Part shown: piece by piece, positions 1,026-19,011 of the stretch
Position numbering within the stretch: the stretch's first letter is position 1
How the letters are laid out: each line of letters starts with the position of its first letter
From: Candidatus Fermentibacteraceae bacterium
GTDB lineage: Bacteria > Fermentibacterota > Fermentibacteria > Fermentibacterales > JCC-6
Assembly: GCA_041686025.1 (NCBI GenBank)
Contig: JAWLEP010000033.1
Span: forward strand, 1 to 28,977
Reading direction: 5' to 3'
DNA length: 28,977 nucleotides
Notes under the pieces: generated by a model
Databases searched by the model: none
The model's input: the letters and a program-made list of their open reading frames with translations, nothing else
Told to the model about the DNA's origin: nothing
Position numbers and translations under genes: made by a program

Positions 1026-2363
1026 ATGGGACGTCCGGCGATACTTGCCCTGGCGGCTGTGATGCTGCTGGCGGCTTCGTGCGGAAACGAATCTGCCCGG
1101 GCGGCAGGGGGCCGACCCAACATCCTGCTTGTTCTGATCGACACCATTCGGGCCGACCACATGGGTTCCTACGGCTACCATCGGGATACCACCCCCCACC
1201 TGGACAGCCTGGCGGAGGCGGGAACACGGTACGCTCGAATGATGAGCGGCAGCCCCTGGACACTGCCTTCCATGACCACCACCTTCACCGGACTCACCGA
1301 GAGACAGCATCGGGCCCGCCTGCGGAACAGGACTTTCTACGGTGTTGACCCTTCCCTGCCCTTCATGCCCCTGCTGCTGAAGGACCAGGGCTACCGGACC
1401 GCGGCATTCTTCAACGTGATCTACATGAGCGAGCACTTCGGATTCCACCGGGGCTTCGACCACTTCGACTGCGAGGGGCTGGTGGAGCTGTGGAACAGCC
1501 GCACCGCCGGCGAGACGGTGGACGCCCTGCTGGCCTGGCTGGACGAGCGGGAGGGCGGCCGGCCCTTCTTCGCCGCCCTGCATCTGTTCGACCCCCACGC
1601 CACCTACGACCCGCCATCTCCATACGACACCATCTGGGCGGATCCGGCCTACGAAGGACCCTTCGACTCCTCCTGGGGAATGCGCAGCGACATGGACGAC
1701 GCCAACTCCGGGGCGGTGGTGGTGGACTCCGCCGGCATCCGCAACCTGACCAACCTCTACGACGGCGAGATCGCCTACACCGACACCCAGCTGGGCCGGC
1801 TGCTGGGCGGGCTGCGCCGGAGGGGGCTGGGCGGGGAGACGCTGGTTATCGTCATGGGCGACCACGGCGAGGAGTTCGCCGACCACGGGAAGTTCGCCCA
1901 CGGCCACACGCTGCACGCCGAGCTGCTGCAGGTGCCCCTGATAATGGCCGGCGCGGGAGTGGAGCCGGGAGTGGTGGACACCAGCCTGGTGGGCAACGTC
2001 GACGTACTGCCCACCGTCATGGCCGCGGCCGGTGCATCGACTCCGGAGGGCTCGCCGGGCAGGGACCTGCTCTCACCCTACGAAGGCCCTCCCCGGACGC
2101 TGTTCGCCAGCGGCCTGGGAGGCTCGAGGCAGGCCTGCGCCAGAAGGCTGGACCGGAAGGTGGTCTGGCACCTTGAGCCGGACAGCGCATACGCCTACGA
2201 CCTGGCGGCCGACCCGACCGAGATGAATCCCCTGCCGCCGGACAGCGGGCTGCTGGCGGAGGCCATGGACTACTGGGCCACGCCCCCGCGGGGCAACCCC
2301 CAGGCGGTGCCCTGGACCAACGCGGTGGAGGACCAGCTCCGGGACCTGGGCTACATCAGATAG
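1026..2363 (+). CDS. Sulfatase-like (alkaline phosphatase superfamily) lipoprotein
   Basis: Lipobox LLAASC; RPNILLVLIDTIRADH, SPWTLPSMTTTFTG, HLFDPHATY, YDGEIAYTD, GDHGEEF, C-terminal LRDLGYI. Confidence 0.9.
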   Translation: MGRPAILALAAVMLLAASCGNESARAAGGRPNILLVLIDTIRADHMGSYGYHRDTTPHLDSLAEAGTRYARMMSGSPWTLPSMTTTFTGLTERQHRARLRNRTFYGVDPSLPFMPLLLKDQGYRTAAFFNVIYMSEHFGFHRGFDHFDCEGLVELWNSRTAGETVDALLAWLDEREGGRPFFAALHLFDPHATYDPPSPYDTIWADPAYEGPFDSSWGMRSDMDDANSGAVVVDSAGIRNLTNLYDGEIAYTDTQLGRLLGGLRRRGLGGETLVIVMGDHGEEFADHGKFAHGHTLHAELLQVPLIMAGAGVEPGVVDTSLVGNVDVLPTVMAAAGASTPEGSPGRDLLSPYEGPPRTLFASGLGGSRQACARRLDRKVVWHLEPDSAYAYDLAADPTEMNPLPPDSGLLAEAMDYWATPPRGNPQAVPWTNAVEDQLRDLGYIR

Positions 2364-3303
2364 CCGAAAAGTCCACCGGGACTGTGGTGCCGGCCTCCAC
2401 CTGCACGAAGCGGTGCCAGACCCCCACCCCGCCTGCGGGCAGCCTTCTGGTGAGCATTACCAGCAGCTCGCCCTCTCCCAGGACAAGGGTGTCCGGGCCT
2501 TCGGCTGCGGGCACGGCCCAGTCCAGGGGCAGCCACCTGCCCCGCACCGGCAGGCTCAGGGAGATGCGGAAGTCCCCTTCCCACTGCGGCGGTACGGTCA
2601 CCAGGGAACCGGTTGAGACATGCTCGGAGGTCAGGGGTATGCCGTGGCTCTCCTCCACCGCCAGCACCAGCCCCTCCATGCCGGGGGGATCCACCGCCTG
2701 CCATTCCCCCTCCATCCACACCTCCGCCCAGCTCCGCTCACCGCCCTCGGGGCCTGCGAACCAGCCCTTCACCACCCGGGCCGGCCAGCCCAGCGACCGC
2801 AGTGAGGCCACCAGAAGCACCTGCAGCTCGGCCCCGGTGCCGGCGCCGGACTCCAGCACCCCGGCGGGAGGCTGCATACCTCCCAGGAACTCCCGGGGGA
2901 TGGTGTCCAGGTTGGCCGCCATCCATCGGGACAGATCTTCGGGGCCTTCGACGCCGCGGTGGGTCCAGAAGGCCGCCAGCCTCTCCCGGTAGGCGGTTAC
3001 CGGCTCCCGGGACACCCGGTACCACAGCAGGCACTCCAGGAAGACGCTGTCGGGCATGGAGCCCCGGTGGGCCAGGGTGCCGAGTATGTGGTCGTCAAGC
3101 GCCTCCGGCGTCATCTCCAGCCGGTCCAGCCGGGGGACCTTCCTCAGCAGGTAGAGGGCGCACTCCAGCGTATCGCCCCCGGCCTCTGCCAGGTAGTCGC
3201 TCCACATCTCCGCGTTTCCCTGGGTCTCCGCCAGCAGGCTGTCGACCTCCGCCTCGGCCCCCGGGGAAAGCGTGACCATGCACGCAAGGATTATCCCCGA
3301 CAT
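2356..3303 (-). CDS. Secreted transglutaminase-like paralog, predicted catalytically inactive
   Basis: Start reassigned to ATG 3303 (TGATG overlap with the upstream stop; MSGIILACMVTLS). Aligns with the neighbour (PDSVFL..L..RVS.EP; LRSLGWPAR; WAEVW) but has GTGAEL for GRCEEM and ERSW for NHAW. Confidence 0.75.
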   Translation of the reverse strand: MSGIILACMVTLSPGAEAEVDSLLAETQGNAEMWSDYLAEAGGDTLECALYLLRKVPRLDRLEMTPEALDDHILGTLAHRGSMPDSVFLECLLWYRVSREPVTAYRERLAAFWTHRGVEGPEDLSRWMAANLDTIPREFLGGMQPPAGVLESGAGTGAELQVLLVASLRSLGWPARVVKGWFAGPEGGERSWAEVWMEGEWQAVDPPGMEGLVLAVEESHGIPLTSEHVSTGSLVTVPPQWEGDFRISLSLPVRGRWLPLDWAVPAAEGPDTLVLGEGELLVMLTRRLPAGGVGVWHRFVQVEAGTTVPVDFSAI

Positions 3304-4280
3304 CACTGCCCCTCCTCCAGGTTCATCAGGCAGTGTTCGGGGAGCTCCTCGGATACCGGTCTGAAGAGCGTAGTGTCCCCGGCGGCCACGGTCACCCGGG
3401 CCGAGCTCACCGGCCATCCCCAGCTCAGCAGGTAGACGCCCCCGCCCAGCTCCACCTGCGTTCGGACGGAGTCCAGGGAGGTGATGGGACGGTAGCTGCC
3501 GTAGTTGACAACCGAGACGGTGACCTCCTCCGGCGGAGTCCCTTCGCAGCGCAGCAGGCCGGTCTCGGCGTAGGAGGCGGTGACGTTGAGCACGGAGACG
3601 TCCCCCCGGAAGGCCATGGCCCCGGGTACGGAGTCGGGGGCGATGGCCACCACCAGGGCCGCGTCCCGCGCCCTCTCCGTGAACCAGGTGGAGTTGAGGG
3701 TCTCCTGCTCGGCGGAGATGTCGGTGTAGCGCCAGCCGCCGGGGGTCCAGACCTCCGGCCAGGCGTGGTTGCTGTCCACGGTGGTCCACCAGGGCGTGTA
3801 GGCCTGCCGGCAGGGGATGCCCACGCTCCTCAGGGCGTCCATGAAGAACACGGTCATCTCCTCGCAGCGGCCTATCCCCGACGACCAGGTCACCAGGGGC
3901 GACTGGTCGCGGAACTGGGTGGGCCGGTAGTCTATGACGCTGTCGGCCCAGGCCGACACCAGCAGAACCGCCTCCTCCATGGACTCCGCGCCGGCGACCA
4001 CCGGCAGCACCGCATCCCGGAACCGCGGCCTCCAGCGCACCAGCGGCTCCTGGCTGACTCTTGCCGGCAGGACGTAGCGGAGGAAGACGGAATCCGGAAT
4101 GGACGGCCCCCAGGGCATGGAGTCCCGGGTCCACAGCGCCAGGCGGACATTCTCCTCCATGATTGCCCGGTGCTCGCCGGCCAGGTCCGAGGCCGGGGAG
4201 TGGGCCTCCAGGTGGGCCAGGCAGGCGTCGTAGTCCAGCGCGCCGCCCACAGAGAGCAGCAGCATGATCAGCACGTGCAT
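3303..4280 (-). CDS. Secreted transglutaminase-like cysteine protease/transamidase
   Basis: GIGRCEEM (Cys), ALRSVGIPCR, NHAWPEVW (His), GWRYTD (likely Asp); hydrophobic N-terminus; GGGAG RBS 5 nt before ATG 4280 (ORF track starts at GTG 4286). Confidence 0.85.
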   Translation of the reverse strand: MHVLIMLLLSVGGALDYDACLAHLEAHSPASDLAGEHRAIMEENVRLALWTRDSMPWGPSIPDSVFLRYVLPARVSQEPLVRWRPRFRDAVLPVVAGAESMEEAVLLVSAWADSVIDYRPTQFRDQSPLVTWSSGIGRCEEMTVFFMDALRSVGIPCRQAYTPWWTTVDSNHAWPEVWTPGGWRYTDISAEQETLNSTWFTERARDAALVVAIAPDSVPGAMAFRGDVSVLNVTASYAETGLLRCEGTPPEEVTVSVVNYGSYRPITSLDSVRTQVELGGGVYLLSWGWPVSSARVTVAAGDTTLFRPVSEELPEHCLMNLEEGQ

Positions 4281-4336
4281 ATGCACTCCCGAAGTCTGTG
4301 CCGATATCCGCTTAGAATAGTCTGCTTAGACAATTA

Positions 4337-6547
4337 CTATCTGATTACGGCGAACTTGCCCAGCACCCGGCCGCCCTCGGCCTCCACGCAGTACACGTAG
4401 AGGCCGGAGACCGCGGCGCGGCCCTCGCTGTTGCGGAGGTTCCAGTACGCGGTCCCGCTGTTGCCCCCGCCGCTGCGGTGCTCCAGTGTGACTACCCTCT
4501 CGCCGCTGAGCGTGTAGATGTGCACGTCGCACATGGCGGGAAGGCCGGTGAAGGCCAGCCGGTCCTGGCCCCCCCTCTCCCACGCCGCCGAGCCCCGGTA
4601 GGGGTTGGGCACCACCGAGACGTTTTCCCTCCAGTCGGAGTCGGCCGCCCACCCCGGAGTCACGGGGACGGGCTCCCCCTGCAGCGTCTGCTTGTAGTTG
4701 GTCATGGGGCTCTCTATTCCGGTCTCGGCGTCCACCGAGCAGAGCACGTAGTAGTAGGGGTACCCCCTGGTCACCGTGCTGTCGGTGTAGCCGCTGGCCC
4801 CGGCGTCGAGGTCGGCTACGGGCTCCCAGTCGCCTATGCCGAACACGGAGCGGTAGATCCGGTAGCCTCCGAACGGCTCGTAGCTCTCGGCGTCGTCGCT
4901 CCAGACCATCTCCACGCAGCCGTCTGCGGCCTCGTAGAAGAAGGTGGGCACCGGGGGCACGTCTGGCACCCCCCAGCCGCCGCCGCGATGGTAGGCGTCC
5001 AGCAGGAGGTCCGCATTGCGCCGCAGCTCCTCCAGCCCCCTGCCCACCACTATTCCGCCTATGACGCGGAGGCTGTCGCCGTCGGCCAGGTCCACCGGCC
5101 CCATGGTCAGCAGGAAGGAGAACTCGAAGGGCTGGTTCCCCAGGGCCAGGGGGTTGTCCTGCACTATGGGGAAGGGGCCCGGGTTCTGGGGCACGAAGGC
5201 GTTGGGGGCGGCGGGATCTCCCACCCAGGAGGCCAGGTAGGCGGGACCGTTGCCCCGGCCGCTGGCGCTGTGGTTGTCGCCCCAGATGTACTGGTACTTC
5301 GTGTCGTCGCCCTCCGCCGGGTAGAGACTGTAGTCCCACCAGGTGTGGGACAGGGGAATGGGGACCCCGAAGACGTCGATGGGCCTCTCGATGGTGCCGT
5401 CGGCCTTCTTGATCCAGCAGTCCAGCAGGCGCCAGCCAACGAAACCGTTGCAGGGCGGATTGTAGACCGGCTCTCCCGAGTCGTCCGGGGAGGATGTGGG
5501 CCGGTCGCCGTCCCACATGTAGCTCATGTTCCGGGGGACAACCGCATAGGTCGTGTCGCCGACGGTATGCACCCAGTACTCCCCGGGCATTCCATCGCTG
5601 AACAGGTCCAGTCCGGTATCTTCGTTGACCGGGTAGAGCGTGTCTCCGCCGGAGGCGCGGAAGAGGACCGTGTAGTGGTCGGAGACGCCGTCGGAGTTCA
5701 CGTCGGCGTCCACGATTCCGTCGGAGCCGAGGTAGTTGTAGTGGTAGTAGATGTTGTCCTCCGGGTCGGTGCATTCGGCCTGGGGGTTCTGCTGGTAGAC
5801 GAAGTCGTCGGCCTCGCTGGCCTTTGAGCCGTCGTCGAGCCGGTACTCGAAGGTGGCCTCCGGGTCGTTGCACCAGATGGCGTGGCCGTCGTAGAAGACC
5901 AGATCGTCCATGAAGTAGTCGTCCGACGGGTCCGATGTGGCGATATTGCAGTCGGCGAACACCGAGAAGCAGAAGGCGTCCAGGGGGACGCCGGGGTTTC
6001 CGTGATCGCTGTCGTGGGTGATGCTGAAATCCGAGACCAGGAAGGTGTCGTAGCCCGGAGTGCCCCAGCTGTAGCTCCTGGTGTAGATCTGAACGCCCAT
6101 GGGATCCTCGTTGGCCGCCTCGTACCAGTCGTCGGCGCACCAGTAGGTCTCCTCCAGGGCCGTCTCGCCGGGGCTTACCTTGAGAAGCGGCCAGCCCTCG
6201 CTGGGCCAGAGCTCGAAGGAATGGCTCTGCGCCCAGGGCCAATGGATGCAGCTCACGTACGGAGCCTCCACCGCATCCGGGGTGACGGCGCCGTATGCGG
6301 ACACCCATGGTGCCAGGTACCACAGGTAGCTGGCGCCGTTCTCCCGGGGCCAGGACATGGCCGTGTCGGCCCAGCCGTAGAGGCAGTTCATTACGTAGGA
6401 GTAGAAGTTCCCCTGGGAATGGTAGGCGCCGGCAAGGGGAGGCCGGGCGTCGGAACCCTGGGGAACGGGCTGAGGAAGCGCCTCCCGGCCCCGCGGCTGC
6501 GGCGGCAGGGCAAGGAGCAGGACCGTAAGAAGCAGATGAGCCGTCAT
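4337..6547 (-). CDS. Secreted acidic protein with fibronectin type III domain and T9SS-like C-terminal domain
   Basis: Start ATG 6547 (ATGA overlap; MTAHLLLTVLLLALPP). FN3 motif (GYRIYRS...YTDSTVTRGYPYYYVLCSVD); CTD VVPNPYR...FTGLP...IYTLSGERV...WNLRN...SGLYVY...KFAVIR. Confidence 0.8.
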   Translation of the reverse strand: MTAHLLLTVLLLALPPQPRGREALPQPVPQGSDARPPLAGAYHSQGNFYSYVMNCLYGWADTAMSWPRENGASYLWYLAPWVSAYGAVTPDAVEAPYVSCIHWPWAQSHSFELWPSEGWPLLKVSPGETALEETYWCADDWYEAANEDPMGVQIYTRSYSWGTPGYDTFLVSDFSITHDSDHGNPGVPLDAFCFSVFADCNIATSDPSDDYFMDDLVFYDGHAIWCNDPEATFEYRLDDGSKASEADDFVYQQNPQAECTDPEDNIYYHYNYLGSDGIVDADVNSDGVSDHYTVLFRASGGDTLYPVNEDTGLDLFSDGMPGEYWVHTVGDTTYAVVPRNMSYMWDGDRPTSSPDDSGEPVYNPPCNGFVGWRLLDCWIKKADGTIERPIDVFGVPIPLSHTWWDYSLYPAEGDDTKYQYIWGDNHSASGRGNGPAYLASWVGDPAAPNAFVPQNPGPFPIVQDNPLALGNQPFEFSFLLTMGPVDLADGDSLRVIGGIVVGRGLEELRRNADLLLDAYHRGGGWGVPDVPPVPTFFYEAADGCVEMVWSDDAESYEPFGGYRIYRSVFGIGDWEPVADLDAGASGYTDSTVTRGYPYYYVLCSVDAETGIESPMTNYKQTLQGEPVPVTPGWAADSDWRENVSVVPNPYRGSAAWERGGQDRLAFTGLPAMCDVHIYTLSGERVVTLEHRSGGGNSGTAYWNLRNSEGRAAVSGLYVYCVEAEGGRVLGKFAVIR

Positions 6548-7587
6548 CCCTGCCCCTGCATCGTGCTGATCAGCTCCATCAGGGCGAACAGGAAGCCCTC
6601 GGAATCGGGGTCCAGGCCGTGGCCGTAGCCCGCCTCCCGGCAGAGGAACCATGCGTAGATGAAGCTCTCCCGCCCGAAGGCGCACGAGGCCGCTCCCGCG
6701 GCCACCTGGGCGGCGCTCAGAGACAGCGCGGAGGACCGGTCGGGGTCATCCCCGCCGAATGAGTATGCCGGATCCAGTTCCATGAGGCCCTGCGCGCAGG
6801 CGGCTGCCAGCAGGGGGTCGCCCTCATCATCCCGAAGGTCCTCGAAGACGGTGCGGACGGCCAGGGCGTCCAGCGTTATCTGCCCCGCAGCCCCGCCGGC
6901 ATCGAAGGTTGCGTAGTCGTAGCGAACGTACTGCCCCACGGATACCCAGCCCAGAGACGACCCCAGGTACTCCGCGGTGAAGTAGACGCTGTCGCCCCTG
7001 GCGCTGTCGCAGGTGAAGGGAGACCAGGCCTGGGTGTTGAAAACCTCCAGGCAGGCGATGGGGTCTTCTCCGGCGGGAGAGAAGCGGAAGCCCAGGTCCG
7101 TATCGAAGCCGGCGGAATCCAGGTAGGCGTATATGCGGCCGTTGACCCACTGGTAGCCGGAGTCGGCCGTCATGGCCAGCCAGGCCTGCAGCGAGTCGGG
7201 GGGCAGGTGGGGGTCTATGCACCGGAACACCGTCCACATGGTGTCCTGGACCTGGTACTCGGACCGGTGGAGGCGGACGGCGGAATGGCCCAGGTCCCGC
7301 CCGACGGCCATCAGGAGGTAGCCGTCGGCCTCCTCCCACCTCTCCTCCAGCCAGCCGCAGGCGGTTCCGGCCCCCAGGTAGGCCTCGGCCCGGGTGACGT
7401 CGGTCTCTATGGCGCTCCTGAACAGGTCGAAGGCCTCCTGCGGGCTGCCTTCCGCCAGCGCCTGCCAGCCCAGGGAAAGGTAGCCCTCGTATCCCTCCGG
7501 GTCCGGCATGCCGGCCGGATTGTCCCCGCAGCCCATGAAGAGAAGGAGGGCTATGCACATCCCCGGGAAAGCTCTGCCGCTACTCAA
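6544..7587 (-). CDS. TPR-containing lipoprotein
   Basis: Lipobox LLFMGC followed by a TPR-like segment (GWQALAEG...EAFDLFRSAIETDVTRAEAYLGAG). Start is TTG 7587 or ATG 7560. Confidence 0.7.
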   Translation of the reverse strand: MSSGRAFPGMCIALLLFMGCGDNPAGMPDPEGYEGYLSLGWQALAEGSPQEAFDLFRSAIETDVTRAEAYLGAGTACGWLEERWEEADGYLLMAVGRDLGHSAVRLHRSEYQVQDTMWTVFRCIDPHLPPDSLQAWLAMTADSGYQWVNGRIYAYLDSAGFDTDLGFRFSPAGEDPIACLEVFNTQAWSPFTCDSARGDSVYFTAEYLGSSLGWVSVGQYVRYDYATFDAGGAAGQITLDALAVRTVFEDLRDDEGDPLLAAACAQGLMELDPAYSFGGDDPDRSSALSLSAAQVAAGAASCAFGRESFIYAWFLCREAGYGHGLDPDSEGFLFALMELISTMQGQG

Positions 7588-10045
7588 TCCGTACCACCCT
7601 GCCCGTGCGGGATCTGCCAGCGAATTCCACGCGGAACAGGTAGACGCCGCATGGCACCGCGTTCCCCCTGTCGTCGCGGCCGTTCCACTGTACGCTCCGC
7701 ATGCCCGGACCCGCGTACCCTTCGCGCAGAGTCGCCAACGCTCTTCCGCTCAGGTCGTAGATGCGGACCGTGGCCGGGCCCTCCTCGGGCTGGCTGAAGG
7801 AGATGACTGTGGATGCCCGGAAGGGGTTGGGGGCGGGAGCCTCCAGCACCAGCCTGCCCGGCACCTCGGGGGAGCTCACTCCGGGGCCATGGCCGCAGGC
7901 GTATACACCTCCTTCGGAGAGGCTGCAGTAGATCCGGCCGGACTGCCACCAGTCCTCCACCCGCCTCCAGCCGCTCTCCCCCAGACGGAAGATGCCGACC
8001 TCGCCGGTGGCCGACTCGAAGGAGAGGGTGCCGCCCACGGGGGGGACGCTCACCGGCCCCCCCGTGATCTCCGTCATCAGCCCTCCGTCGCTTCCCAGAG
8101 GGACGCCGGCGGGCAGCTGCGAGCCCATGGCGTCCACCTGGGCCAGGAACAGCACGCAGCCCGGCGGCGCTTCCCCCCCGGAGACCAGCAGCCGCGCTCC
8201 GCCGGCGGAGAGCGAGAGGTCGCCGGAGCCTCCGAAGGCCACGGCGAACTCCTTCTCGGCCTGGTGGGGAAGGCCCAGGCTGTCGTACCCGGAGCAGACC
8301 ATCCGGTATTGCCCCGGGCTCCATGCATGAACCCGCCCGCTCCATATGGGGCCCCAGAACCTGTCCATCTCCATGATCCGGGTGCTGTCTGGCTCTCCGT
8401 CGGGGCCCAGCAGCGAGACCTCCAGCCTGGGGCCCACCCAGTCGAAGCCGTAGAGGGCTTCGCTTTCGGTCCTGTACAGCGAGGAGTAGACCTGCAGGTA
8501 CTCTGTGTTCAGGGAGTTCTGCAGCGCGCTGAGCAGCAGGCCCTTCTCCGCCGTGTCCTGGCTGATGGTGTAGCGCAGCAGGGGCGTTCCCCCGGGGTTG
8601 TTGTTGGAGAGGACCAGGTAGGTGGACCCGCCGGCTAGGTCGAAGGTGCCGGCGTAGAGCTCGTTCAGATCTATCTTCTCCACCGAGGCCACTGTGGTTG
8701 TGTCGGCCAGCACCACCCTGTACGCCGCCCAGTGGGCGTCTAGGTTGAAGCCCGAGCCGTCGTTCTGGTTGTACATGCAGTTCAGGAAGACCTCTTCATT
8801 GCCTCCGGAGTAGTCGCCCGTGAACTCCACGTACTGCGCCGCGAACACCGGTGCGCTCATGCCGTAGCGCGGATGGGCGATCCAGGTGGACAGCGGATAG
8901 GAGTCGAACTCCGTGATGAAGCTGGCGGGGTTGCCGATGTAGGAGAACTCGTAGCCCGTGCCCTCCAGGAACGGGTAGCGGTATATCCCCCCGCCAAAGT
9001 CACCGGCTATGAAGGCGATGAGGTTTGTCACCAGCCAGTCCTCGTAGAGGGGGTAGATGATCCCGGGCAGCAGTGCGCTGTCCGGGGCGGCCGGATCGAT
9101 GGCGGAGGCTATTCCCTCCATGCCCGCGCCGTCGGACCCGGCGATCTCCGGGATCAGGCCGGAACCCTCCCTGTACTCCAGGTACTTCAGCCACAGCAGC
9201 GCGGCCCCCAGGTTCTCCGAGAAGTCGCTTCCCCTCTGGCCGGAGTTCCAGTGGGTCAGCTCAATGCATCCGGCCGTTGCGAAGTCGCTCAGGCAGTCCA
9301 CTATGCCGATGTACTCGTTGAAGGCCGAGGTCAGGCCGTAGCACTCGTACTGCGCGTACATGCCCAGACCCCTGATGAGCCAGCGCTCCTCGTCCGGGTT
9401 GGCGGCTATCCGGAAGAGCTGGCCCAGTCCCATGGGTACCGACCAGGTGTGGATGGCTCCCCGTATCTCCTTCCAGGTGCTGCCGGGCAGGTTCTTGTAG
9501 ACGCCGAGGCTTATGTAGAAGATGTCGTGGTCGTTGCCGGAGACGCCGCTGCCGTCGAAGTCCTCGGGCCAGACGTAGGCCCAGCTCTGCAGCCTGGTGG
9601 CCGGACCCGCCGGCTGCGGCCAGTAGTCCCTCATGTCGGCGAAGACTATCCAGATGCGGTCGTCGTCGTTGGGGGTGTCCGGCATGGGGCCCAGAGCGGA
9701 TGTCACCGTACCCCAGACGTCGACGCCGGCCCCCTCGAACTGGGCCGTGAGGCTGTCCAGCTCCTGCTGGTCGATCAGATCGTCCCAGAGGATCTGGTGG
9801 TCCATGGTGGTGTCGGGCAGGTCTATGAAGCTGGTGTCCTGCACCAGCCAGACTGCATGCTCGGTCACCGCCCGGCAGGTGAACCGGCGCGTCTGGAGAT
9901 CCTCGGTGGCGTAGGAGATGTCGGGCACCAGAAGATCAACGGTGTCCCCCACCTCCATGGAGGCCGCCGAGACGAAGGCCAGGAAGAGCAGGGCCGCAGT
10001 GAATGATGCCGGCCGGAGCCTGCTACCTTTCCGGGGGGCGCCCAT
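7580..10045 (-). CDS. Secreted M30/M6-like (zincin-fold) pseudo-metallopeptidase with FlgD-Ig/T9SS C-terminal domain
   Basis: Start ATG 10045 after GAAAGGAAG; signal peptide; DDRIWIVFAD...NDHDIFYI...DEERWLIRGLGMYAQ...GAALLWLKYL resembles M30/immune-inhibitor-A-like domains but has no HExxH; CTD PNPF...IYDLSGR...WNGRDDRG...GVYLFRV. Confidence 0.7.
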   Translation of the reverse strand: MGAPRKGSRLRPASFTAALLFLAFVSAASMEVGDTVDLLVPDISYATEDLQTRRFTCRAVTEHAVWLVQDTSFIDLPDTTMDHQILWDDLIDQQELDSLTAQFEGAGVDVWGTVTSALGPMPDTPNDDDRIWIVFADMRDYWPQPAGPATRLQSWAYVWPEDFDGSGVSGNDHDIFYISLGVYKNLPGSTWKEIRGAIHTWSVPMGLGQLFRIAANPDEERWLIRGLGMYAQYECYGLTSAFNEYIGIVDCLSDFATAGCIELTHWNSGQRGSDFSENLGAALLWLKYLEYREGSGLIPEIAGSDGAGMEGIASAIDPAAPDSALLPGIIYPLYEDWLVTNLIAFIAGDFGGGIYRYPFLEGTGYEFSYIGNPASFITEFDSYPLSTWIAHPRYGMSAPVFAAQYVEFTGDYSGGNEEVFLNCMYNQNDGSGFNLDAHWAAYRVVLADTTTVASVEKIDLNELYAGTFDLAGGSTYLVLSNNNPGGTPLLRYTISQDTAEKGLLLSALQNSLNTEYLQVYSSLYRTESEALYGFDWVGPRLEVSLLGPDGEPDSTRIMEMDRFWGPIWSGRVHAWSPGQYRMVCSGYDSLGLPHQAEKEFAVAFGGSGDLSLSAGGARLLVSGGEAPPGCVLFLAQVDAMGSQLPAGVPLGSDGGLMTEITGGPVSVPPVGGTLSFESATGEVGIFRLGESGWRRVEDWWQSGRIYCSLSEGGVYACGHGPGVSSPEVPGRLVLEAPAPNPFRASTVISFSQPEEGPATVRIYDLSGRALATLREGYAGPGMRSVQWNGRDDRGNAVPCGVYLFRVEFAGRSRTGRVVRIE

Positions 10046-10208
10046 GGGTGCTTCCTTTCGCAAGGTCTTGAGCCGGTCGCTGCATGATACCCGCACTTTC
10101 TCCGAGGCGTCAATGGAGTTCGTTTCCGCAGGGACGTTTGACCGGAAACGCGGCGGCGGCTAGTGTTAGCTGGGCCATCAGAGCATTGCTTACTTTTGGG
10201 GGAGGACG

Positions 10209-11270
10209 ATGATGCGCATGTGCTTCGGCAGGGGCGTCGGGATAGGGGACTCTCTGCTGCTGGCCGCGCTGCTGCTGTGCAGCTGCATCGACAGCCCCGC
10301 CACCACGGAGCCCCCCAACCCCTACGCCTCCGAGCTGGAGCTGCTGTGGGAGCTGTTCGACGGGGAGTACGCGGGCTTCGAAGGAAGCGGCGTGGACTGG
10401 CAGGGCGTGCTGCAGTCCTACCTGCCCCTGGCGGATGCGGTCTCCTCGGAGGAGGGGATGACGTGGCTCATGTCCGACCTCCTGGGGGAGCTCTCCGACC
10501 CCAACGTCGTCCTGGTATCCCCGCAGGGCGATACGCTGAGGCCCTGCGACCCTTCCGCGGAGCAGAACTGCGACCTGGAACTGCTGGAGGACTACCTGGA
10601 GCCGTGGGACTTCCAGTGGAGGCAGGAGGGCATCTGGGGATTCTGCCTGGCGGGGGAGGACTCCGCCGGATACGTGGTCCTGCAGAGCTGGGACGCCGGC
10701 CTGAACGTCAGCCTGTTCGACAACGTCCTGCAGACCGTTCCCCCCGAGCCCGGCCTGATCATAGACGCCCGGCCCTGCGGCGGCGGCGTGGAGAGCTCTG
10801 TGTACAAGGTGGTCCGCCGTTTCGTGGACGTCCAGCGGGCGGGCTACCTCTGGCGGGAGAGGCAGGGGGCCGGCACCCACGACCTCACCGACCCCGAGCC
10901 GTTCTGGATGGTCCCCCGGCCCTGGCGCTACCAGGGCGAGGTGGTGGTCCTGACTGGCGGGGCCAGCCGGGGTCCGGCGGAGGCCTTTTCCTGCATGATG
11001 GGCCAGCTTCCGCAGGTGACGGTCATCGGAGACACCACCCTGGGGGCCGGCAACTGGCCCGCCGACACCTTTGCCCTCACCGAAGGCCGTCAGGTCCTCT
11101 GCCCCGTGCGGGTGGTGCTGAGGCCGGACTCCGTCGCCATACAGGGAGCGGGGGTGCCTCCGGACCTGTACGTGGAGGCCACCGGGGAGGACTTCTCGCA
11201 GGGAATCGATCCGGTGCTGGAGGAGGCATTCGGGCTGCTGGGCGCCAGCCCCCCCGACCGGCCCCGCTAG
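10209..11270 (+). CDS. S41 family (Tricorn C1 + peptidase S41) lipoprotein, predicted inactive
   Basis: GGAGG RBS; lipobox LLCSC; LWELFDGEY...GVDW (Tricorn C1-like), LIIDARPCGGG, VVVLTGGASRGPAEAF, VTVIGDTTLGAG, QGAGVPPD, DPVLEEA. Confidence 0.8.
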   Translation: MMRMCFGRGVGIGDSLLLAALLLCSCIDSPATTEPPNPYASELELLWELFDGEYAGFEGSGVDWQGVLQSYLPLADAVSSEEGMTWLMSDLLGELSDPNVVLVSPQGDTLRPCDPSAEQNCDLELLEDYLEPWDFQWRQEGIWGFCLAGEDSAGYVVLQSWDAGLNVSLFDNVLQTVPPEPGLIIDARPCGGGVESSVYKVVRRFVDVQRAGYLWRERQGAGTHDLTDPEPFWMVPRPWRYQGEVVVLTGGASRGPAEAFSCMMGQLPQVTVIGDTTLGAGNWPADTFALTEGRQVLCPVRVVLRPDSVAIQGAGVPPDLYVEATGEDFSQGIDPVLEEAFGLLGASPPDRPR

Positions 11271-11276
11271 ATCCTC

Positions 11277-12275
11277 TCAGATCTCCGAGGTGAGCACCAG
11301 CACGTACTCCCCGTTGGCGTGGGAGGTGATGTCCCAGGGGAAGCCGTCCAGCGGAATGGGGTCGGTCTTCTCGCCGGTGATAAAGTCCACGGCGGTAACC
11401 GCGCTGACCCCGTCCCCCAGGTAGCTCAGTACGTAGAACAGGGTGGTCCCGGGCACGCTGCAGATGTCCACCGGATGGCCGGCGATGGGCAGGGCGGTGA
11501 CCTCCGGCTGGGTGAAGTTGACGCAGACGGAGACGCTCCCGGTGCTGCCGTACCAGCTGGGGTGGGTGGCGGCCCATATGGACTCCGCCGGGAAGGCCTG
11601 GGCGCCGGAGCAGACGCTGCCCAGCTCGGCGGCGTCCGAGATGTAGAAGGTGGCCAGGTCCACGGCGTAGACGGTGCCGGCGTCGTCGGCGCAGGCCACC
11701 AGCAGGTAGCGGTCCTGATGGGACTCCACCGTGGCCTCCACCGCCGGCTCGTCCAGGGGGTCGGTGCTCCGCAGAACCGAGTTGTCCGCGGAGTCCACCT
11801 CCCGGATGCGGCCGTCGCTGCCGTCCACCACGTAGAACAGCTGGCTGGCGGGGGAGGCGCACAGGCCCACCGGCAGGGGGCCGGCGGTGATCTCGTCCAC
11901 CACCAGGCCCATGCCCACGTTCACCTCCAGTATCCTCCCCGCAGCCCCGATCACGTAGGCCACTCCCGGTTTCGGAAGGATGATGTCGCCGTATCCGGCG
12001 CCGCTGCTGGGCCCGATGGCGAAGGAGGTGTCCAGCGACATGTCCGGCGAGCTGAACCGATGAAGCCGTCCGGAGCCGGTGGAGACCAGGAAGGACGCGC
12101 TGCCCAGCGAGGCCAGGGCGCGGCCATCGCCGAAGCCCGAGGCCTGTCCCGCCACGGTGTTGTCCTCGACCCGCAGCTTGACCACCCCGCTGGCAGCGGT
12201 GGTGGAGTACTCCACCGGCTGGTGGCAGGCCGCCGCCAGCAGGGCCAGTGCGGCCAGCCTGCGGACGGCTACCAC
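11277..12275 (-). CDS. YVTN/YncE-like beta-propeller lipoprotein
   Basis: Start GTG 12275 overlapping the receptor 3' end (MVAVRRLAALALLAAAC lipobox); repeated blades (AYVIG, GPLPVGLCASP..FYVVD, GHPVDIC..FYVL, GFPWDITS). Confidence 0.75.
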   Translation of the reverse strand: MVAVRRLAALALLAAACHQPVEYSTTAASGVVKLRVEDNTVAGQASGFGDGRALASLGSASFLVSTGSGRLHRFSSPDMSLDTSFAIGPSSGAGYGDIILPKPGVAYVIGAAGRILEVNVGMGLVVDEITAGPLPVGLCASPASQLFYVVDGSDGRIREVDSADNSVLRSTDPLDEPAVEATVESHQDRYLLVACADDAGTVYAVDLATFYISDAAELGSVCSGAQAFPAESIWAATHPSWYGSTGSVSVCVNFTQPEVTALPIAGHPVDICSVPGTTLFYVLSYLGDGVSAVTAVDFITGEKTDPIPLDGFPWDITSHANGEYVLVLTSEI

Positions 12276-14941
12276 TGCGCGCTCACCCCGAACATCACGT
12301 GCCGGGCCGGCGACCAGGCCGCCGGGTTGGAGGTGGCGCCTCCGGGGTCGCCGCCATCCAGGTAGAGGGCCGGGTCGTAGATGTCCACCACGTTCCTCCG
12401 GTCGAAGAGGTTGTAGACCGTGGCCCGGGCCTCCAGGGTCAGCGGCCCCGCCCATATCCTCCGCGAGGCCTGCAGGTCGGTCTGCATCGTCCAGGGGTAG
12501 CGGCGGGTGTTGACCTCCGGGATCGAGTCCGCCGGGGGCGGGCTGAAGGGGAAGCCGCTGCCCCAGGACCAGTCCAAGCTGAGGCCGGCGCCCTCCAGGG
12601 GCCGGAAGCCGCCCATAACCGGCCCTTCCCCGCGGTCCAGAGCCAGCAGCAGGTGCGCGTTGGCCGTGTGGCGCTGGTCCCAGTCCAGGTAGTGCTCGTC
12701 TGCGGGTACGGTTCCGTAGCCCTCCGACGAGTACCGGTACTGCTCGGTGGAGGAGGAGTAGCGGCCCTCGGCCAGGGAGTAGGTGTAGCCCAGGCTCCCC
12801 GACCAGCCGCTTCCCGTGAGCCTGGAAAGGGTGAGCTCCACCCCCTGGACGGTGGCGTAGCTGTCGTCGTTCTCGTAGCGGAAGAAGTAGTCGCCCCCCT
12901 CCGCCGAGCTGGGAGCGGTGCGTACCAGGCCGGTGATCCGCTTGCTGAAGGCGGCGAAGGAGAGGCTGGAGAGCGGGTCGAACCTGTGCCGCACGCCGGC
13001 CTCGTAGGAGCTGGTTCTCACCGCGTCCAGGTCGGGGTTGCCCACGATGGAGTAGGAGCCGGTGAGGTTGTAGTTGGTGCCGAAGAACATCTGGTTGAGG
13101 CTGGGCATCTGGAAGTAGTGGCCGTAGGTGGCGAAGAACACGTCGTTCTCCGATACCGGGTGGGTCATCCCCAGCCTGGGGCTGATCTGGTACTTCGCCG
13201 GGACCTCTTCGGTGCCCTCCCCGCCGGCCTCCACCAGCTCGGTGCTGGGGTCGAAGGCCTCCAGCCTCAGGCCCGTGTTCAGCACCATGGCCCCCGAGAA
13301 GTCGAAGGAGGTCTGCAGGTAGGCGGCGCCGGAGTAGGGACTGGCCCTCCAGTTGCTGACGAAGGTCTGTCCCGGAGCGCCGGAGTAGACGCTGAAGTCG
13401 TATATGTCGAAGTACTTCCCCTCCAGGCCGACCTTGACCTCCAGCATGGGCCCCACCCTGCTGGTCACCGAGGCCCGGCCGGTGGTGACGCTGCTGCTGG
13501 ACTCCAGCCAGACCTCCGGGTGTATGCCGCCGTGGTAGAAGCCCAGGGAGTCGGCCACCCTCTCCTCGGGGTAGAACTCGGCGTACCAGGCCGCGGGGGT
13601 GAGGTCGTCGCCCAGGTAGCCCCCGCCCGGGTCACGGACCCTCCTCCAGTGGCGGAACTCCCCCTGGTCGGCCAGCAGCTCCATCACCGTGCCGTCACCC
13701 AGCAGCCGCGAGAACCTGGCGGTGAGCCCCCAGCTCTCCTCGAACCTTACGGGGAGGGCGTAGTCGATGTGGCCGCCGATGTAGGGCTCGCCGTCAATGT
13801 AGGCCGGCTGGTCGTAACGGGACCATGCCCACTCGTCCCAACCTGACTGGCGGTAGGAGTATCTGCCCAGCAGGCCTATCTGGGTGGAGGGAACCGGCCT
13901 GTAGCTGAGGTTGAGGCAGCCGCTGACGAGGTTCTGCCAGTTGTTGTCCCAGTTGCCCCGACTGTCCCGGAGGTCGAAGCCGCTGCGGCTCCACTCCACT
14001 GCCCCGAAGAAGCGGGCCTCTCCGGGGACCTCCACTCCCAGCGAAGGAAGCAGAAGCCCTGTGAGGGGCTCGGGGCCACCCAGGGAGGCCTGGCCGTCCA
14101 GGCAGTCGCCGCGGAAGTTGGAGTTCTCCGAGGGCTCTGAGTAGTTGCGGGTCTCGCTCTCGCCCCCGAAGGCGGTCATGTCCCCGGCGCCCAGGTCCAG
14201 GCTTCCCTCGTAGTCGGAGCCCCCCTCCCGGACCACCATCCTGACTATACCCGACATGGCGTTGCCGTACTCGGCCCCGAAGCCGCCGGTGGCCACCGAG
14301 GTCTCCGCCAGGGCCGACAGGGGCACGGTGGCCACCATGGCGTTGGTCATGGGCGAGCGTACCGAGACCCCGTCAAGCAGGTAGTCCACCTCGCCCCCCC
14401 TGCCGCCGCGGACGTGTATCTCGCCGCCCCGGGTGGTGATCCCCGCCTGCCTGCCCACCACGTCCAGGACGCTGGCCACGGGCATGGTCTCTATCTCGCT
14501 GCGGTCGATGACGTGCATGGTGGAGGGAACGTCCTCCAGTATCCGGTTGCGCTGGCCCCGGACCTCTATGACAGTCACCCCGCTGGCGGCCTCCGACAGC
14601 TGAAAGTCGATGCGGGTGGTCTGGTCGGAAACCACGGTTACGCCCTCCACGGAGACCGTCTCCATCCCCACCATCCGGGCGGTGAGGGCGTAGTCGCCGG
14701 GGGACAGCCGCGATATCACGTACTCCCCGTTGCCGTCGGCCATGGCCCCGAAGCTGGTCCCCTCCACCAGAACGGTGGCCCCGGGAACCGGCTCTCCCGA
14801 GCCGTCGGTCACCCGGCCGGTGACGGTACCCGTGGTGGAAGCCAGGGAGATCGAGAAAAGTATCAGAGCGGCGACTGGATGTTTCAGAGCGTTGCCCTTT
14901 CGTGTGCCCCGATGAAGTCGGAACATGAACATTGCATACAC
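12269..14941 (-). CDS. TonB-dependent receptor with N-terminal carboxypeptidase-regulatory-like domain
   Basis: GTVTGRVTD..GEPVPGATVLVEGT..GAMAD.NGEY; plug HVRGGRGGEVDYLLDG; AEYGNAMSGIV; SPRLG, GNPDL, YNLFD; terminal aromatic W. Start uncertain (GTG 14941, ATG 14932/14926 or CTG 14887). Confidence 0.9.
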   Translation of the reverse strand: MYAMFMFRLHRGTRKGNALKHPVAALILFSISLASTTGTVTGRVTDGSGEPVPGATVLVEGTSFGAMADGNGEYVISRLSPGDYALTARMVGMETVSVEGVTVVSDQTTRIDFQLSEAASGVTVIEVRGQRNRILEDVPSTMHVIDRSEIETMPVASVLDVVGRQAGITTRGGEIHVRGGRGGEVDYLLDGVSVRSPMTNAMVATVPLSALAETSVATGGFGAEYGNAMSGIVRMVVREGGSDYEGSLDLGAGDMTAFGGESETRNYSEPSENSNFRGDCLDGQASLGGPEPLTGLLLPSLGVEVPGEARFFGAVEWSRSGFDLRDSRGNWDNNWQNLVSGCLNLSYRPVPSTQIGLLGRYSYRQSGWDEWAWSRYDQPAYIDGEPYIGGHIDYALPVRFEESWGLTARFSRLLGDGTVMELLADQGEFRHWRRVRDPGGGYLGDDLTPAAWYAEFYPEERVADSLGFYHGGIHPEVWLESSSSVTTGRASVTSRVGPMLEVKVGLEGKYFDIYDFSVYSGAPGQTFVSNWRASPYSGAAYLQTSFDFSGAMVLNTGLRLEAFDPSTELVEAGGEGTEEVPAKYQISPRLGMTHPVSENDVFFATYGHYFQMPSLNQMFFGTNYNLTGSYSIVGNPDLDAVRTSSYEAGVRHRFDPLSSLSFAAFSKRITGLVRTAPSSAEGGDYFFRYENDDSYATVQGVELTLSRLTGSGWSGSLGYTYSLAEGRYSSSTEQYRYSSEGYGTVPADEHYLDWDQRHTANAHLLLALDRGEGPVMGGFRPLEGAGLSLDWSWGSGFPFSPPPADSIPEVNTRRYPWTMQTDLQASRRIWAGPLTLEARATVYNLFDRRNVVDIYDPALYLDGGDPGGATSNPAAWSPARHVMFGVSAQW

Positions 14942-15178
14942 TTGCCCCCCGCCTGTAGTGTGTCAATCGAGCCCTCTGGAACCGGGAGGACGGCGTGCGG
15001 GGACCCTGTACCGGGGTGACTCTGATTCGTAAATTGTCCATTCCGCCGGTGCCCGGCCGCGCCGGCGGGCTGGGTCATGGCCTCTGCGTCCCCGGCGGGG
15101 GAACGTTGTGCGCCAATACCTGTATATAGCTTGAAGGGGCCGCCGGCCGGCGGCGGGCCATAGCCGGGAAGGCGATAG

Positions 15179-17428
15179 ATGCTACTTGCCATACTGCTGC
15201 TCCTGGGGCAGACGTGCGAATGGGACTTTCAGTCTTCCTTCTCGCGGGTGGACAACATGCATCCCGGTAGCGGGGGGACGATACTGGCAGCCGGACCCGG
15301 AGGGGTCTTTCGGTACGACCCTGCCAGCGGCGACTTCAGCGACTTCTACGGATATCCCGGCCAGCTGCCGGGGCTGGGGGCCAACGACGTTCTGGAGGAT
15401 TCCGACGGCAACCTGTGGGTGGCCCCCACCGACGGCGGCCTGACGGGCCTGCGCGACGGCGAGTGGGTGGTGTACACCGTCTACGAGGGCATACCCGGCT
15501 CGGGCACCATCTACAGCCTGGAGGAGGCGGGGGGCAAGATCTGGGCGGGAACGGACGCCGGAGTGGCCATGGAGGCAGGCGAGGGCTTCGTAAGTCTGGA
15601 CGAGTCCTCCACGAATGGAGGTCTGCCCACCACGAAAGTCTACGACCTGGACCACGACGGGCAGTTCCTCTGGCTGGCCACCGGCAAGGGCGTCTACCGT
15701 CTCGATCTCTCGGCCAGCCCCTACATCGCCGACAGCTGGGACTCCCCCGGCGACACCGGGGGGCTGGGGATCGACTACCTTGCTCTGGGGGAGGGGCAGG
15801 ATCCCGCCGGCGTCGGCTCCCAGGGCGTCTACGTCTTCCAGGACGGAACCAAGTGGACGCTGATGCTCTCAGACTCCGAGGTCTCCCGGGCCGCATGGAC
15901 CTCCTGGGGCCTGCTGGCCGCCGGGGAGGGTGTCCTGCGGCAGGTCTCCGACAGCACCTGGGTGGAGATGGGAACCGGTTTTCCCGAGGGGCTGCCGGGC
16001 AGCTACTACGCCGGCCCTCTGCTGGAGAGGCAGGGAGTGCTGTGGTGCGGCATCGGGCCCATCAGCTACCCCGATGCCTCCTGGGGGCTGGGTCTGGGAG
16101 GGCTTTCGGGACCGGATGACGCCTGGGAGGTCGTTACCATACCGGGTATGCCGGCCAGCAACGTCAACCAGGTGGCGGTAGAGGACGGACTCACCATTCT
16201 GGGCAGCAGGTACTCCGGCCTGCTGGTGGAACACCCCCAGGGATGGCGGCAGTACGGCCAGACGGAGGGACTGCCCAGGTTCCTGCAGGTCTACTCCGCG
16301 ACTGCGGGGCGGGGCAGCGACATATGGTGCTCGGCCTATCACTACGGACTCACCTGGGTGGGCGGCGGCGCCACGTACACCACAGCGGACGACACCGTCC
16401 TGACCTTCGCCTCCGACAGCATCACCTTCCCCCCGGGTCTCAACCAGGTCATCGCCCCCCTCCTGAACAACCAGATCAGGATGATGGCCACCCAGGAGAG
16501 CACCCTCTGGCTGGCCCAGGAGGCCTTCTTCCAGACCCCCGATGAGCCCAGCGGCATAGTGGCCGTAGGCGGCGACCCGCCCAGCCTGGACGACATGACC
16601 TTCACCTCCTACCAGCCGGCGGCCGGCGGCATGGCGGCCAAGAACGTCCGGGCCGTCTGCCCCCTGGGCGCCGACCGCCTGTGGGTGGTCTACGCCGAGA
16701 ACGGCGGCTGCCAGCTGCTGGACCATGGCGGCACCCCCCACGACAGGTCGGACGATCAGTGGCTGCCGGCGGGCAGGGCTTACGGCACCGAGGACGGGCT
16801 GTCCTCCAACACGGTCAACTGCGCCGCCTGCGGGCCGGACGGGACAAGCTACATAGGTACGCCCCTGGGCGTCTATGTTTACAACGGATCCGGCTCCTTC
16901 AGCGAGCTGTCGGGCACGGCAAGCAGCATCACGGCCATGCAGGTGGACGGGGCCGGCCGCCTCTGGGCCAACAGCTCCCGGGGGATGCTCCTGGTGGACG
17001 ACGGCTCGGTGACTGTCTTCGACAGCGACAACTCCCCCTACGTACCCACCTCCCGCGAGGCGGAGGAGGACTTCGCCGCCCTGGGCCCGGACGGCAGCGT
17101 GGTCTACTTCAGCTCCATGTACGGCCTCTGGTCGGTGAGCTGCAGCGGCGGAGGGGGCCAGCAGGGCGGAGGCCCGCTCTTCTACCCCCAGCCATGGAAG
17201 GTGGAGGAGGAGACCCTGGGCATCGCCGGCATACCGGGCGAGGGATCCGTGGAGGTCTCCATCTACCGCGTGGACGGCGGCTTCCTCCGCAGCGTTGGCG
17301 CGCCCTCATCCTCCCAGTGGAGCTGGGACGGCACCGTCGACGGGTCCGTGGTCTCCTCCGGAGTCTACATGGCGCTGGTGAGCTGGGACGGGGGGACCGA
17401 GCTGGTCAAGCTGGCGGTGGTGAGGTAG
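15179..17428 (+). CDS. PorZ-like protein: two-component-regulator beta-propellers plus T9SS C-terminal domain
   Basis: Reg_prop-type repeats (DSDGNLWVA, GLPTTKVYDL, GLSSNTVN, VDGAGRLW); CTD YPQPW...IYRVDG...WDG...SSGVYMALV...KLAVVR. The architecture matches PorZ, but orthology is unverified. Confidence 0.7.
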   Translation: MLLAILLLLGQTCEWDFQSSFSRVDNMHPGSGGTILAAGPGGVFRYDPASGDFSDFYGYPGQLPGLGANDVLEDSDGNLWVAPTDGGLTGLRDGEWVVYTVYEGIPGSGTIYSLEEAGGKIWAGTDAGVAMEAGEGFVSLDESSTNGGLPTTKVYDLDHDGQFLWLATGKGVYRLDLSASPYIADSWDSPGDTGGLGIDYLALGEGQDPAGVGSQGVYVFQDGTKWTLMLSDSEVSRAAWTSWGLLAAGEGVLRQVSDSTWVEMGTGFPEGLPGSYYAGPLLERQGVLWCGIGPISYPDASWGLGLGGLSGPDDAWEVVTIPGMPASNVNQVAVEDGLTILGSRYSGLLVEHPQGWRQYGQTEGLPRFLQVYSATAGRGSDIWCSAYHYGLTWVGGGATYTTADDTVLTFASDSITFPPGLNQVIAPLLNNQIRMMATQESTLWLAQEAFFQTPDEPSGIVAVGGDPPSLDDMTFTSYQPAAGGMAAKNVRAVCPLGADRLWVVYAENGGCQLLDHGGTPHDRSDDQWLPAGRAYGTEDGLSSNTVNCAACGPDGTSYIGTPLGVYVYNGSGSFSELSGTASSITAMQVDGAGRLWANSSRGMLLVDDGSVTVFDSDNSPYVPTSREAEEDFAALGPDGSVVYFSSMYGLWSVSCSGGGGQQGGGPLFYPQPWKVEEETLGIAGIPGEGSVEVSIYRVDGGFLRSVGAPSSSQWSWDGTVDGSVVSSGVYMALVSWDGGTELVKLAVVR

Positions 17429-18553: not shown

Positions 18554-19011
18554 TTCTCGTACCTCATCTCGGCGTACTTGGAGGTAAAGCCGATCCTCTC
18601 GTACAGCCGCTTGGCCGGGTTGTCGTACTCCACGTGGAGCTTCACGTCGCCCTCGGCCTCTTCCAGGGCGCGCCCGATTATCCGCCCGCCTACGCCGCGG
18701 CCCCTCATGTCCGGACGTACCGCCACGTAGAGGAGCACGTTCTCGGGAATGTAGCCCTTCATGCCGGTGCGCAGCATGACCACCGAGCCCACGGGCTCTC
18801 CCTCCTCCTCGGCCAGGAGAACGAACCCGCCCCTGCCGGGCTCCTCGGAGAGGGAGTATTCGAGGCCGTCCAGTATCTCCTCCACGGGATCGTCGAAAGG
18901 CTTGAGGCTCTCGTGGAGGAACTCCGCCAGGTCCCTCTTCGCTATGTGCTCCTCGAGCTCATCGGCGGTGTGGGATACAGATACGTCAATGCTGTCGGAT
19001 TTGCTGGCCAT
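18550..19011 (-). CDS. GNAT family N-acetyltransferase
   Basis: YVAVRPDMRGRGVG acetyl-CoA motif A; LHVEYDNPAKRLYERIGF. Confidence 0.9.
   Translation of the reverse strand: MASKSDSIDVSVSHTADELEEHIAKRDLAEFLHESLKPFDDPVEEILDGLEYSLSEEPGRGGFVLLAEEEGEPVGSVVMLRTGMKGYIPENVLLYVAVRPDMRGRGVGGRIIGRALEEAEGDVKLHVEYDNPAKRLYERIGFTSKYAEMRYEK

Follow-up and report, generated by a model that had tools for sequence, protein, structure and literature searches.

Among the described TonB-dependent systems, those closest to the locus analysed here are the SusC/SusD and RagA/RagB loci of Bacteroidota, in which the receptor is clustered with surface lipoproteins and secreted proteins and whose copies expand and move between genomes, and the BtuB-BtuG and XusA-XusB systems of Bacteroides, in which a non-SusC receptor is followed by a propeller lipoprotein. 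Lipoprotein lids other than SusD are documented for BtuG, XusB and others in the available text of a preprint (bioRxiv 10.1101/2023.03.17.533168), and the accessible sections of PMC10404256 provide a precedent for a propeller lid. We examined a stretch of 28,977 nucleotides (the window), which is the entire contig C33 of a Candidatus Fermentibacteraceae genome (G000; 2.70 Mb, 94.75% complete). Positions 4337-14941 carry a conserved unit encoding a TonB-dependent receptor, a propeller lipoprotein, two protease-like proteins without their catalytic residues (pseudo-S41 and pseudo-M30), a TPR lipoprotein and a beta-supersandwich tail protein. On balance, and with modest confidence, we read this unit as an accessory TonB uptake system that does without SusD, its dead proteases likely acting at the cell surface as capture or adaptor subunits that do not cut.

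The preliminary description of this DNA had proposed a nine-gene surface system comprising a TonB receptor, cargo of the type IX secretion system (T9SS) and dead proteases of three catalytic classes. All nine open reading frames (ORFs) are indeed open, roughly at the coordinates first given. They were compared with 34 relatives from the same order and 6 genomes outside it, and ratios of nonsynonymous to synonymous substitution (dN/dS) were calculated pairwise against a genome of the same genus (G001). The six genes of the conserved unit are as follows.

12269..14941, minus strand: TonB-dependent receptor (CarboxypepD_reg, plug and barrel), core of the block, start codon uncertain (profile matches)
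11277..12275, minus strand: beta-propeller lipoprotein of the YVTN/YncE type, its gene overlapping the receptor stop, predicted to form a lid of the BtuG/XusB kind (profile matches)
10209..11270, plus strand: S41 lipoprotein (Tricorn_C1 and S41), catalytic Ser replaced by G255 and His by N99 (domains, structures, alignment)
7580..10045, minus strand: M30 (lugdulysin-like) pseudo-metalloprotease with a jelly-roll domain and a T9SS type A/FlgD tail (profile, model, alignment)
6544..7560, minus strand: TPR lipoprotein directly downstream of the pseudo-M30 (N-terminal TPRs, lipobox, synteny)
4337..6547, minus strand: secreted beta-supersandwich and Fn3 protein with a PorZ/PorU-type tail (model, fold comparison)

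The receptor matched PF00593, PF07715 and PF13620, all over cut-off, as expected of the TonB-dependent receptor first proposed. Scores were far lower against the SusC/RagA family TIGR04056 (53.6 bits for a cut-off of 368.25, N-terminal part only) and the BtuB model TIGR01779 (44 for a cut-off of 600). No gene of the block matched a SusD family, and PF07980 was not found anywhere in the 94.75% complete genome, while the B. thetaiotaomicron control matched. Lipoboxes were seen in the propeller, S41 and TPR proteins. The proposed pairing of receptor and propeller lipoprotein without SusD held. The propeller most likely starts at GTG 12275 (a correction: the codon at 12272 is GTA). Its profile reached the YncE-type propellers of the clan, matching YVTN and YncE propellers with an E-value of about 3e-5, and Atlas features agree with this type; some of the matched entries we take to be BtuG-type. 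Compared with BtuB-BtuG and XusA-XusB, however, this similarity is distant, no cobalamin riboswitch accompanies the genes (no Rfam riboswitch match in the window or in six related loci) and S41, M30, TPR and T9SS-tail partners are present. The locus also differs from SusC/SusD and RagA/RagB in having no active hydrolase in the conserved block. It appears to function like a TonB utilisation locus, yet to belong neither to SusC/SusD nor to BtuBG.

Related receptors occur in all 34 relatives from the order, the subtype of the window (63-91% identity) being found in 10. Propeller matches were obtained in 31/34 relatives, generally adjoining the receptor, and S41 matches in 32/34; G002 and G003 lack both at the thresholds used. 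The usual layout across the order is a receptor with one to three propellers and one to three S41 genes, and a second receptor-propeller-S41 copy lies on contig C16 of the window genome.

The S41 lipoprotein matched PF14684 and PF03572 over cut-off. It aligned over about 300 residues with the Bacteroidales S41 lipoproteins PDB 4L8K and 8VCB (Q5LIA5, TspA), sharing their two-domain layout and lipoprotein type. In the accessible part of a preprint (bioRxiv 10.1101/2025.01.15.633241), competitive probe labelling yielded two candidate serine proteases, one of them TspA, the nearest solved relative. Unlike TspA, the window protein lacks the catalytic Ser and His, replaced by G255 and N99 in the alignment with both structures, and it adjoins a TonB receptor. 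Among 62 near-complete copies (short partial matches were excluded), both His and Ser remain in 10, His alone in 6, Ser alone in 1 and neither in 45, Ser being absent from 51. Both residues were intact in only 4 of the 54 copies linked to a receptor or propeller, against 6 of the 8 stand-alone copies; linkage was assigned by coordinates, except for one of the 54, on a 2-kb contig, which was assigned by clade, and the copies include kin and are not independent. In a quick version of the S41 tree, the intact copies are spread over several clades and the replacing residues differ, suggesting that catalysis was lost repeatedly. The window gene had a dN/dS of 0.16. Outside the order, no propeller match was obtained in five genomes reached through loci of the KSB1/Calditrichota type, where the controls also gave no match, and S41 relatives in the genomes so reached had no receptor within 1.5 kb, a sample too small to bound the range of the module. 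As separate observations, stand-alone S41 genes (L159, L162, L175 and L176), mostly intact, follow a gene resembling a small outer-membrane barrel, and in G020 and G011 one intact and one dead S41 gene lie in tandem.

The pseudo-M30 protein (821 aa) resembles peptidase M30 (lugdulysin, PDB 7BB8) in its fold and in an E-x-W motif after the active helix. The preliminary description had assigned it to an M30/M6 fold: the M30 part is upheld by profile (lugdulysin, E 1e-5) and by model (mean predicted local distance difference test score, pLDDT, 84.6; Foldseek E 7.5e-9), and the M6 part is not. The candidate family NF052323 (T9SS-dependent M6-like inactivated metalloprotease) was rejected, its match being confined to the tail (13 bits for a cut-off of 600); it is a different family that shares the concept of an inactive zinc-protease fold joined to a T9SS type A tail. 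No meaningful Pfam family was returned for the M30 domain in 30 members. As had been claimed for the zinc ligands, M205-G206-L-G-Q209 stands in place of HExxH and R225 in place of the third-ligand Glu. In contrast to lugdulysin, HExxH and the downstream Glu are absent from 30/30 orthologues, extra domains are present and the protein carries a T9SS tail. At the same site Arg225 is invariant and Gly206 near-invariant, and these two residues suggest that a pocket has been kept. The dN/dS was 0.26. Domain-level matches occur in 34/34 relatives, and outside the order the tail alone gave matches; in 30/30 loci the TPR lipoprotein gene directly follows. A profile search gave 409 matches, of which 150 were listed; HExxH and the downstream Glu are present in 96 of the 132 distant ones listed. 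Among the other listed distant matches covering the site, most lack this motif and several are KSB1 tail proteins. Four distant M30 proteins without HExxH contain a fused region that resembles the beta-supersandwich tail protein. A core M30-like gene elsewhere (G015:C15:42794-45026) is split in two pieces, for which a frameshift and an assembly error are both possible.

The beta-supersandwich tail protein has a paralogue in the core operon described below, the cargo encoded ahead of PorV. Residues 25-640 of the window protein were modelled with a pLDDT of 92.3, and a second look at the Foldseek hits gave a VIA Z-score of 18.9 (root mean square deviation 3.3, 255 aligned residues) against the N-terminal part of dextran dextrinase. 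The modelled protein folds confidently into a beta-supersandwich resembling the N-terminal domains of GH15/GH94/GH116-type enzymes, together with an Fn3 domain. Its named close homologues are from Candidatus Fermentibacteria, and unnamed look-alikes from Calditrichota, Rhodothermota, Bacteroidota and Fidelibacterota. A paralogue that lacks Fn3 and carries an ordinary type A tail was noticed on C66 (3252-5180), with no receptor nearby, and similar copies exist in several relatives.

Three proteins had been credited with T9SS/FlgD-type C-terminal domains, and these are present with unequal scores: the tail of the M30-like protein is over cut-off for TIGR04183 (25.5 for 23) and PF13860 (31.1 for 27), and those of the 4337-6547 and 15179-17428 proteins match the tail of NF052228 alone, far below cut-off. 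At least 30 proteins of the genome carry a similar tail. The genome also encodes a T9SS-like set, with SprA and four PorV-family genes over cut-off, a PorU-like protein just under it (418.8 for 420) and a PorZ-like protein. The search for GldM gave no match in the genome, nor in the controls. Contigs C11 and C13 carry two tandem pairs of PorU-like genes, one of which adjoins a PorV-family gene.

Parts of the block recur in a core operon, whose order receptor-ExbB-ExbD-ExbD-TonB-tail protein-PorV/PorQ family-GWxTD-GWxTD-pseudo-M30-TPR was found in 11/11 fetched loci (the ORF filter left TonB uncalled in 3 of the 11 and the first ExbD in 1). In 24/34 relatives the coordinates place the receptor, tail protein and M30 genes on a single contig stretch. 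The window genome carries the first half of this operon on the ends of contigs C19 and C81, and an assembly gap probably accounts for the second half not having been found. Three membrane-type genes without Pfam or NCBIfam match lie upstream of the core receptor (C19:53920-55972, and L138:17947-19999 on C7 of G001); most core loci have this set, of which C5 carries another, and it is a candidate inner-membrane partner.

The window-subtype block was found in 11/34 relatives, contiguous in 7 and cut at contig ends in 4. No PorV, GWxTD or TonB gene was present in nine fetched stretches of this type. The M30 and tail genes of the block form their own clades (Shimodaira-Hasegawa support 100; trees of 20 and 21 rows), within which the copies of family f3 group with f1 genera, unlike the core copies. 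Moreover, G006, from another genus, shows 79-92% identity across the block against 46% for PorZ. Given this differing branching and these identities, horizontal spread would be the simplest reading, and the block is probably a patchy, mobile extra copy assembled from a part of the core operon and a receptor-propeller-S41 module. Synteny across relatives holds for the receptor-propeller-S41-M30-TPR-tail unit and fails for its neighbours, a transglutaminase pair and a PorZ-like gene, which are scattered. The analogy drawn earlier with the polysaccharide utilisation loci of Bacteroidota also fits, and the M30 and S41 pseudo-proteases are tied to TonB-receptor loci across genomes.

Comparable loci exist beyond the order. 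A scan with a KSB1-type query returned 10 loci, of which 8 have the order receptor-tail protein-PorV-M30-like-TPR lipoprotein without GWxTD: 5 are KSB1/Calditrichota by name, a sixth is Calditrichota, one is Actinomycetota and one another bacterium. The two remaining loci, from Poribacteria, have a different order. Loss of HExxH was read directly in 2 of the 8.

From the gene content, folds, catalytic loss, purifying selection, linkage across genomes and T9SS-like gene set observed, we infer the following steps. The M30 and beta-supersandwich tail proteins would leave the cell by the T9SS-like route, using a PorV encoded elsewhere, and the TPR lipoprotein would hold the pseudo-M30. Pseudo-S41 and pseudo-M30 would bind a ligand in their grooves, leave it uncut and hand it on to the receptor, of which the propeller lipoprotein is the predicted cap, with energy supplied by the TonB/ExbBD genes of the core operon. 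We favour a peptide as the ligand, at about even odds, in view of the protease folds and because members of the group are reported to live by fermenting amino acids; glycans or glycopeptides are a possible choice that we rank below.

Three further genes of the original nine adjoin the conserved unit in the window.

2356..3303, minus strand: inactive transglutaminase-like protein equivalent to a dead second repeat, neighbour outside the block (alignment)
3303..4286, minus strand: transglutaminase-like protein with intact Cys141-His174-Asp189, neighbour outside the conserved block (domain, alignment, synteny)
15179..17428, plus strand: PorZ-like Reg_prop propeller protein with a tail, a core gene moved beside the block in this lineage only (domains, synteny)

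The 3303-4286 protein, previously singled out as the only catalytically complete enzyme, does have C141, H174 and D189, and its partner has G157 and R190 at the Cys and His positions, again as first claimed. Cys and His are both present in 21/21 active genes and in 0/27 dead ones (window copies included), and dN/dS was 0.34 for the dead gene against 0.15 for the active one and 0.15 for the receptor. A match to the dead gene was obtained in 26/34 relatives, and 20 of these loci have the active gene next to it. In 6 relatives (L082-L087) no active partner lies within 1.5 kb, and the dead protein may thus work alone or with a distant partner. Two-repeat proteins of the same kind (PF01841) occur in Prevotellaceae, Delongbacteria, Maridesulfovibrio and other groups. 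A second transglutaminase repeat was seen in 52 of the 63 longer homologues that the active protein has in other groups, and Cys and His are present in 52/52 first repeats and in 0/52 second repeats. The pair is thus most readily understood as this common active-plus-dead protein in split form, although here the repeats are separate adjacent genes and the dead one has a longer loop around the His site. A search among longer proteins with the dead one as query gave nothing, the fused family being reached through the active partner, and a PDB search with the dead protein gave no match. Since the pair adjoins the receptor block in 1/26 relatives (G001 only), it is, judging from synteny, a bystander of the block.

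The PorZ-like protein scored 31 bits against NF052228 (cut-off 260), over the tail region only, and its layout of Reg_prop repeats and tail is PorZ-like. The gene is present in 34/34 relatives and adjoins the block in 1 (G001). Its neighbours in 3/3 fetched relatives are a glycosyltransferase-like gene on one side and a GNAT-like gene on the other (labels from sequence). These two genes are adjacent on C16 of the window genome, which indicates that the PorZ-like gene moved in this lineage; by its position in the genomes compared, it too is a bystander.

The claim that all nine genes belong to a single surface system whose dead proteases represent three catalytic classes is accordingly very improbable. 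The transglutaminase pair does follow the tail-protein gene by 50 bases on the same strand, and G001 has the same layout. Nevertheless, synteny largely refutes such a system: beyond the linkage counts given above, in the single-contig genome G027 the distance to the block is 0.5 Mb for the pair and 1.0 Mb for the PorZ-like gene, no dead-transglutaminase match was obtained in G006, which does have the block, and the dead protein is explained as a split-off second repeat. We find it harder still to credit that the genes are decaying or remain active through alternative residues. The dead transglutaminase has about twice the dN/dS of the active one, and the G015 M30-like gene is in two pieces, but the frames are intact and dN/dS is well below 1 (0.16-0.34). 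Neither the M30 nor the S41 family alignment has a His in a conserved column. The losses are thus old and under selection, as the 30/30 M30, 27/27 dead transglutaminase and 51/62 Ser-less S41 copies also indicate, and not a recent decay.

The uptake reading itself meets several difficulties. The fold of the tail protein is that of sugar-active enzymes and fits poorly to peptides; the block spans at least three transcription units, with S41 on the opposite strand; and four receptor-linked S41 copies retain their catalytic residues. The core PorV copy was not found in the window assembly, which breaks at the core operon. Since all 12 occurrences of the block go back to one origin, they do not count as independent. 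The KSB1 TPR lipoprotein matches that of the window over the N-terminal 56 columns only, and a quick M30 tree, with long branches and undecided on a common origin, leaves the Fermentibacteria and KSB1 pseudo-M30s unjoined (P0084 is labelled active in it through a chance motif elsewhere). Some of this would suit two independent modules on one mobile island, the pseudo-M30-TPR-tail part serving the core receptor: each module is found without the other in most genomes, and the block is of single origin with no PorV, GWxTD or TonB of its own. Yet the halves stay joined through rearrangements and tandem duplications (G011, G012, G027) in two or three families, and we consider such an island unlikely. 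Another possibility is that the dead proteases act in assembly or quality control, as chaperone-like adaptors holding the secreted tail proteins or the receptor, instead of binding nutrients. The pseudo-M30 always comes with its own TPR lipoprotein (30/30), and the S41 Ser and His replacements vary freely between clades, which implies no new conserved binding residue there. Against adaptors, the S41 and propeller copies next to receptors multiply and diversify in concert, as substrate-binding lipoproteins do, and the pseudo-M30 site keeps its invariant Arg225 and near-invariant Gly206; we hold this role to be improbable. A stronger form of the uptake reading would have the S41 and M30 folds repeatedly losing catalysis once tied to a receptor and now acting as peptide-capturing lids, a new class of TonB partner in mobile, SusD-free protein foraging by uncultured FCB-group bacteria; we put this forward tentatively and with some doubt.

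Uncultured Fermentibacteria, KSB1 and Calditrichota are widespread in sediments and digesters. For the capture of large nutrients at the outer membrane of such cells, the locus provides candidate parts, in a genome where SusD was not found. The S41 family offers a natural experiment, active and dead paralogues being sorted by receptor proximity. The uptake reading, if true, would add bacterial surface examples of pseudoproteases as binders. No paper on the cassette was found, and the search of the pseudoprotease literature gave none on TonB partners (supplements and subscription journals lay outside it). Likewise, no paper was found that uses the term 'GWxTD' or combines T9SS, TonB, PorV and Calditrichota, and those listed on Fermentibacter and TonB, judged by title, do not concern this locus. 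We regard as new the receptor-propeller-S41 module, the association of receptor linkage with S41 inactivation and the mobile composite block.

A promoter and terminator scan was at chance level (1 found for 1.0 expected, and 3 for 3.1). RNA runs contributed small shares, and 4 of 8 gave short, low-depth contigs across block and flanks alike, uninformative on expression, operons or habitat. Elsewhere in the window, positions 27354-28388 (plus strand) encode a protein that by eye is ribose-phosphate pyrophosphokinase-like, with no Pfam family returned. An ornithine-racemase-like gene lies at 17471-19011 (minus strand; NF040742, 303 for a cut-off of 480), with a GNAT acetyltransferase gene upstream and a second racemase paralogue on C39. 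Finally, positions 1026-2363 (plus strand) encode an exported sulfatase-family protein with nine paralogues in the genome, many for a 2.7-Mb fermenter.

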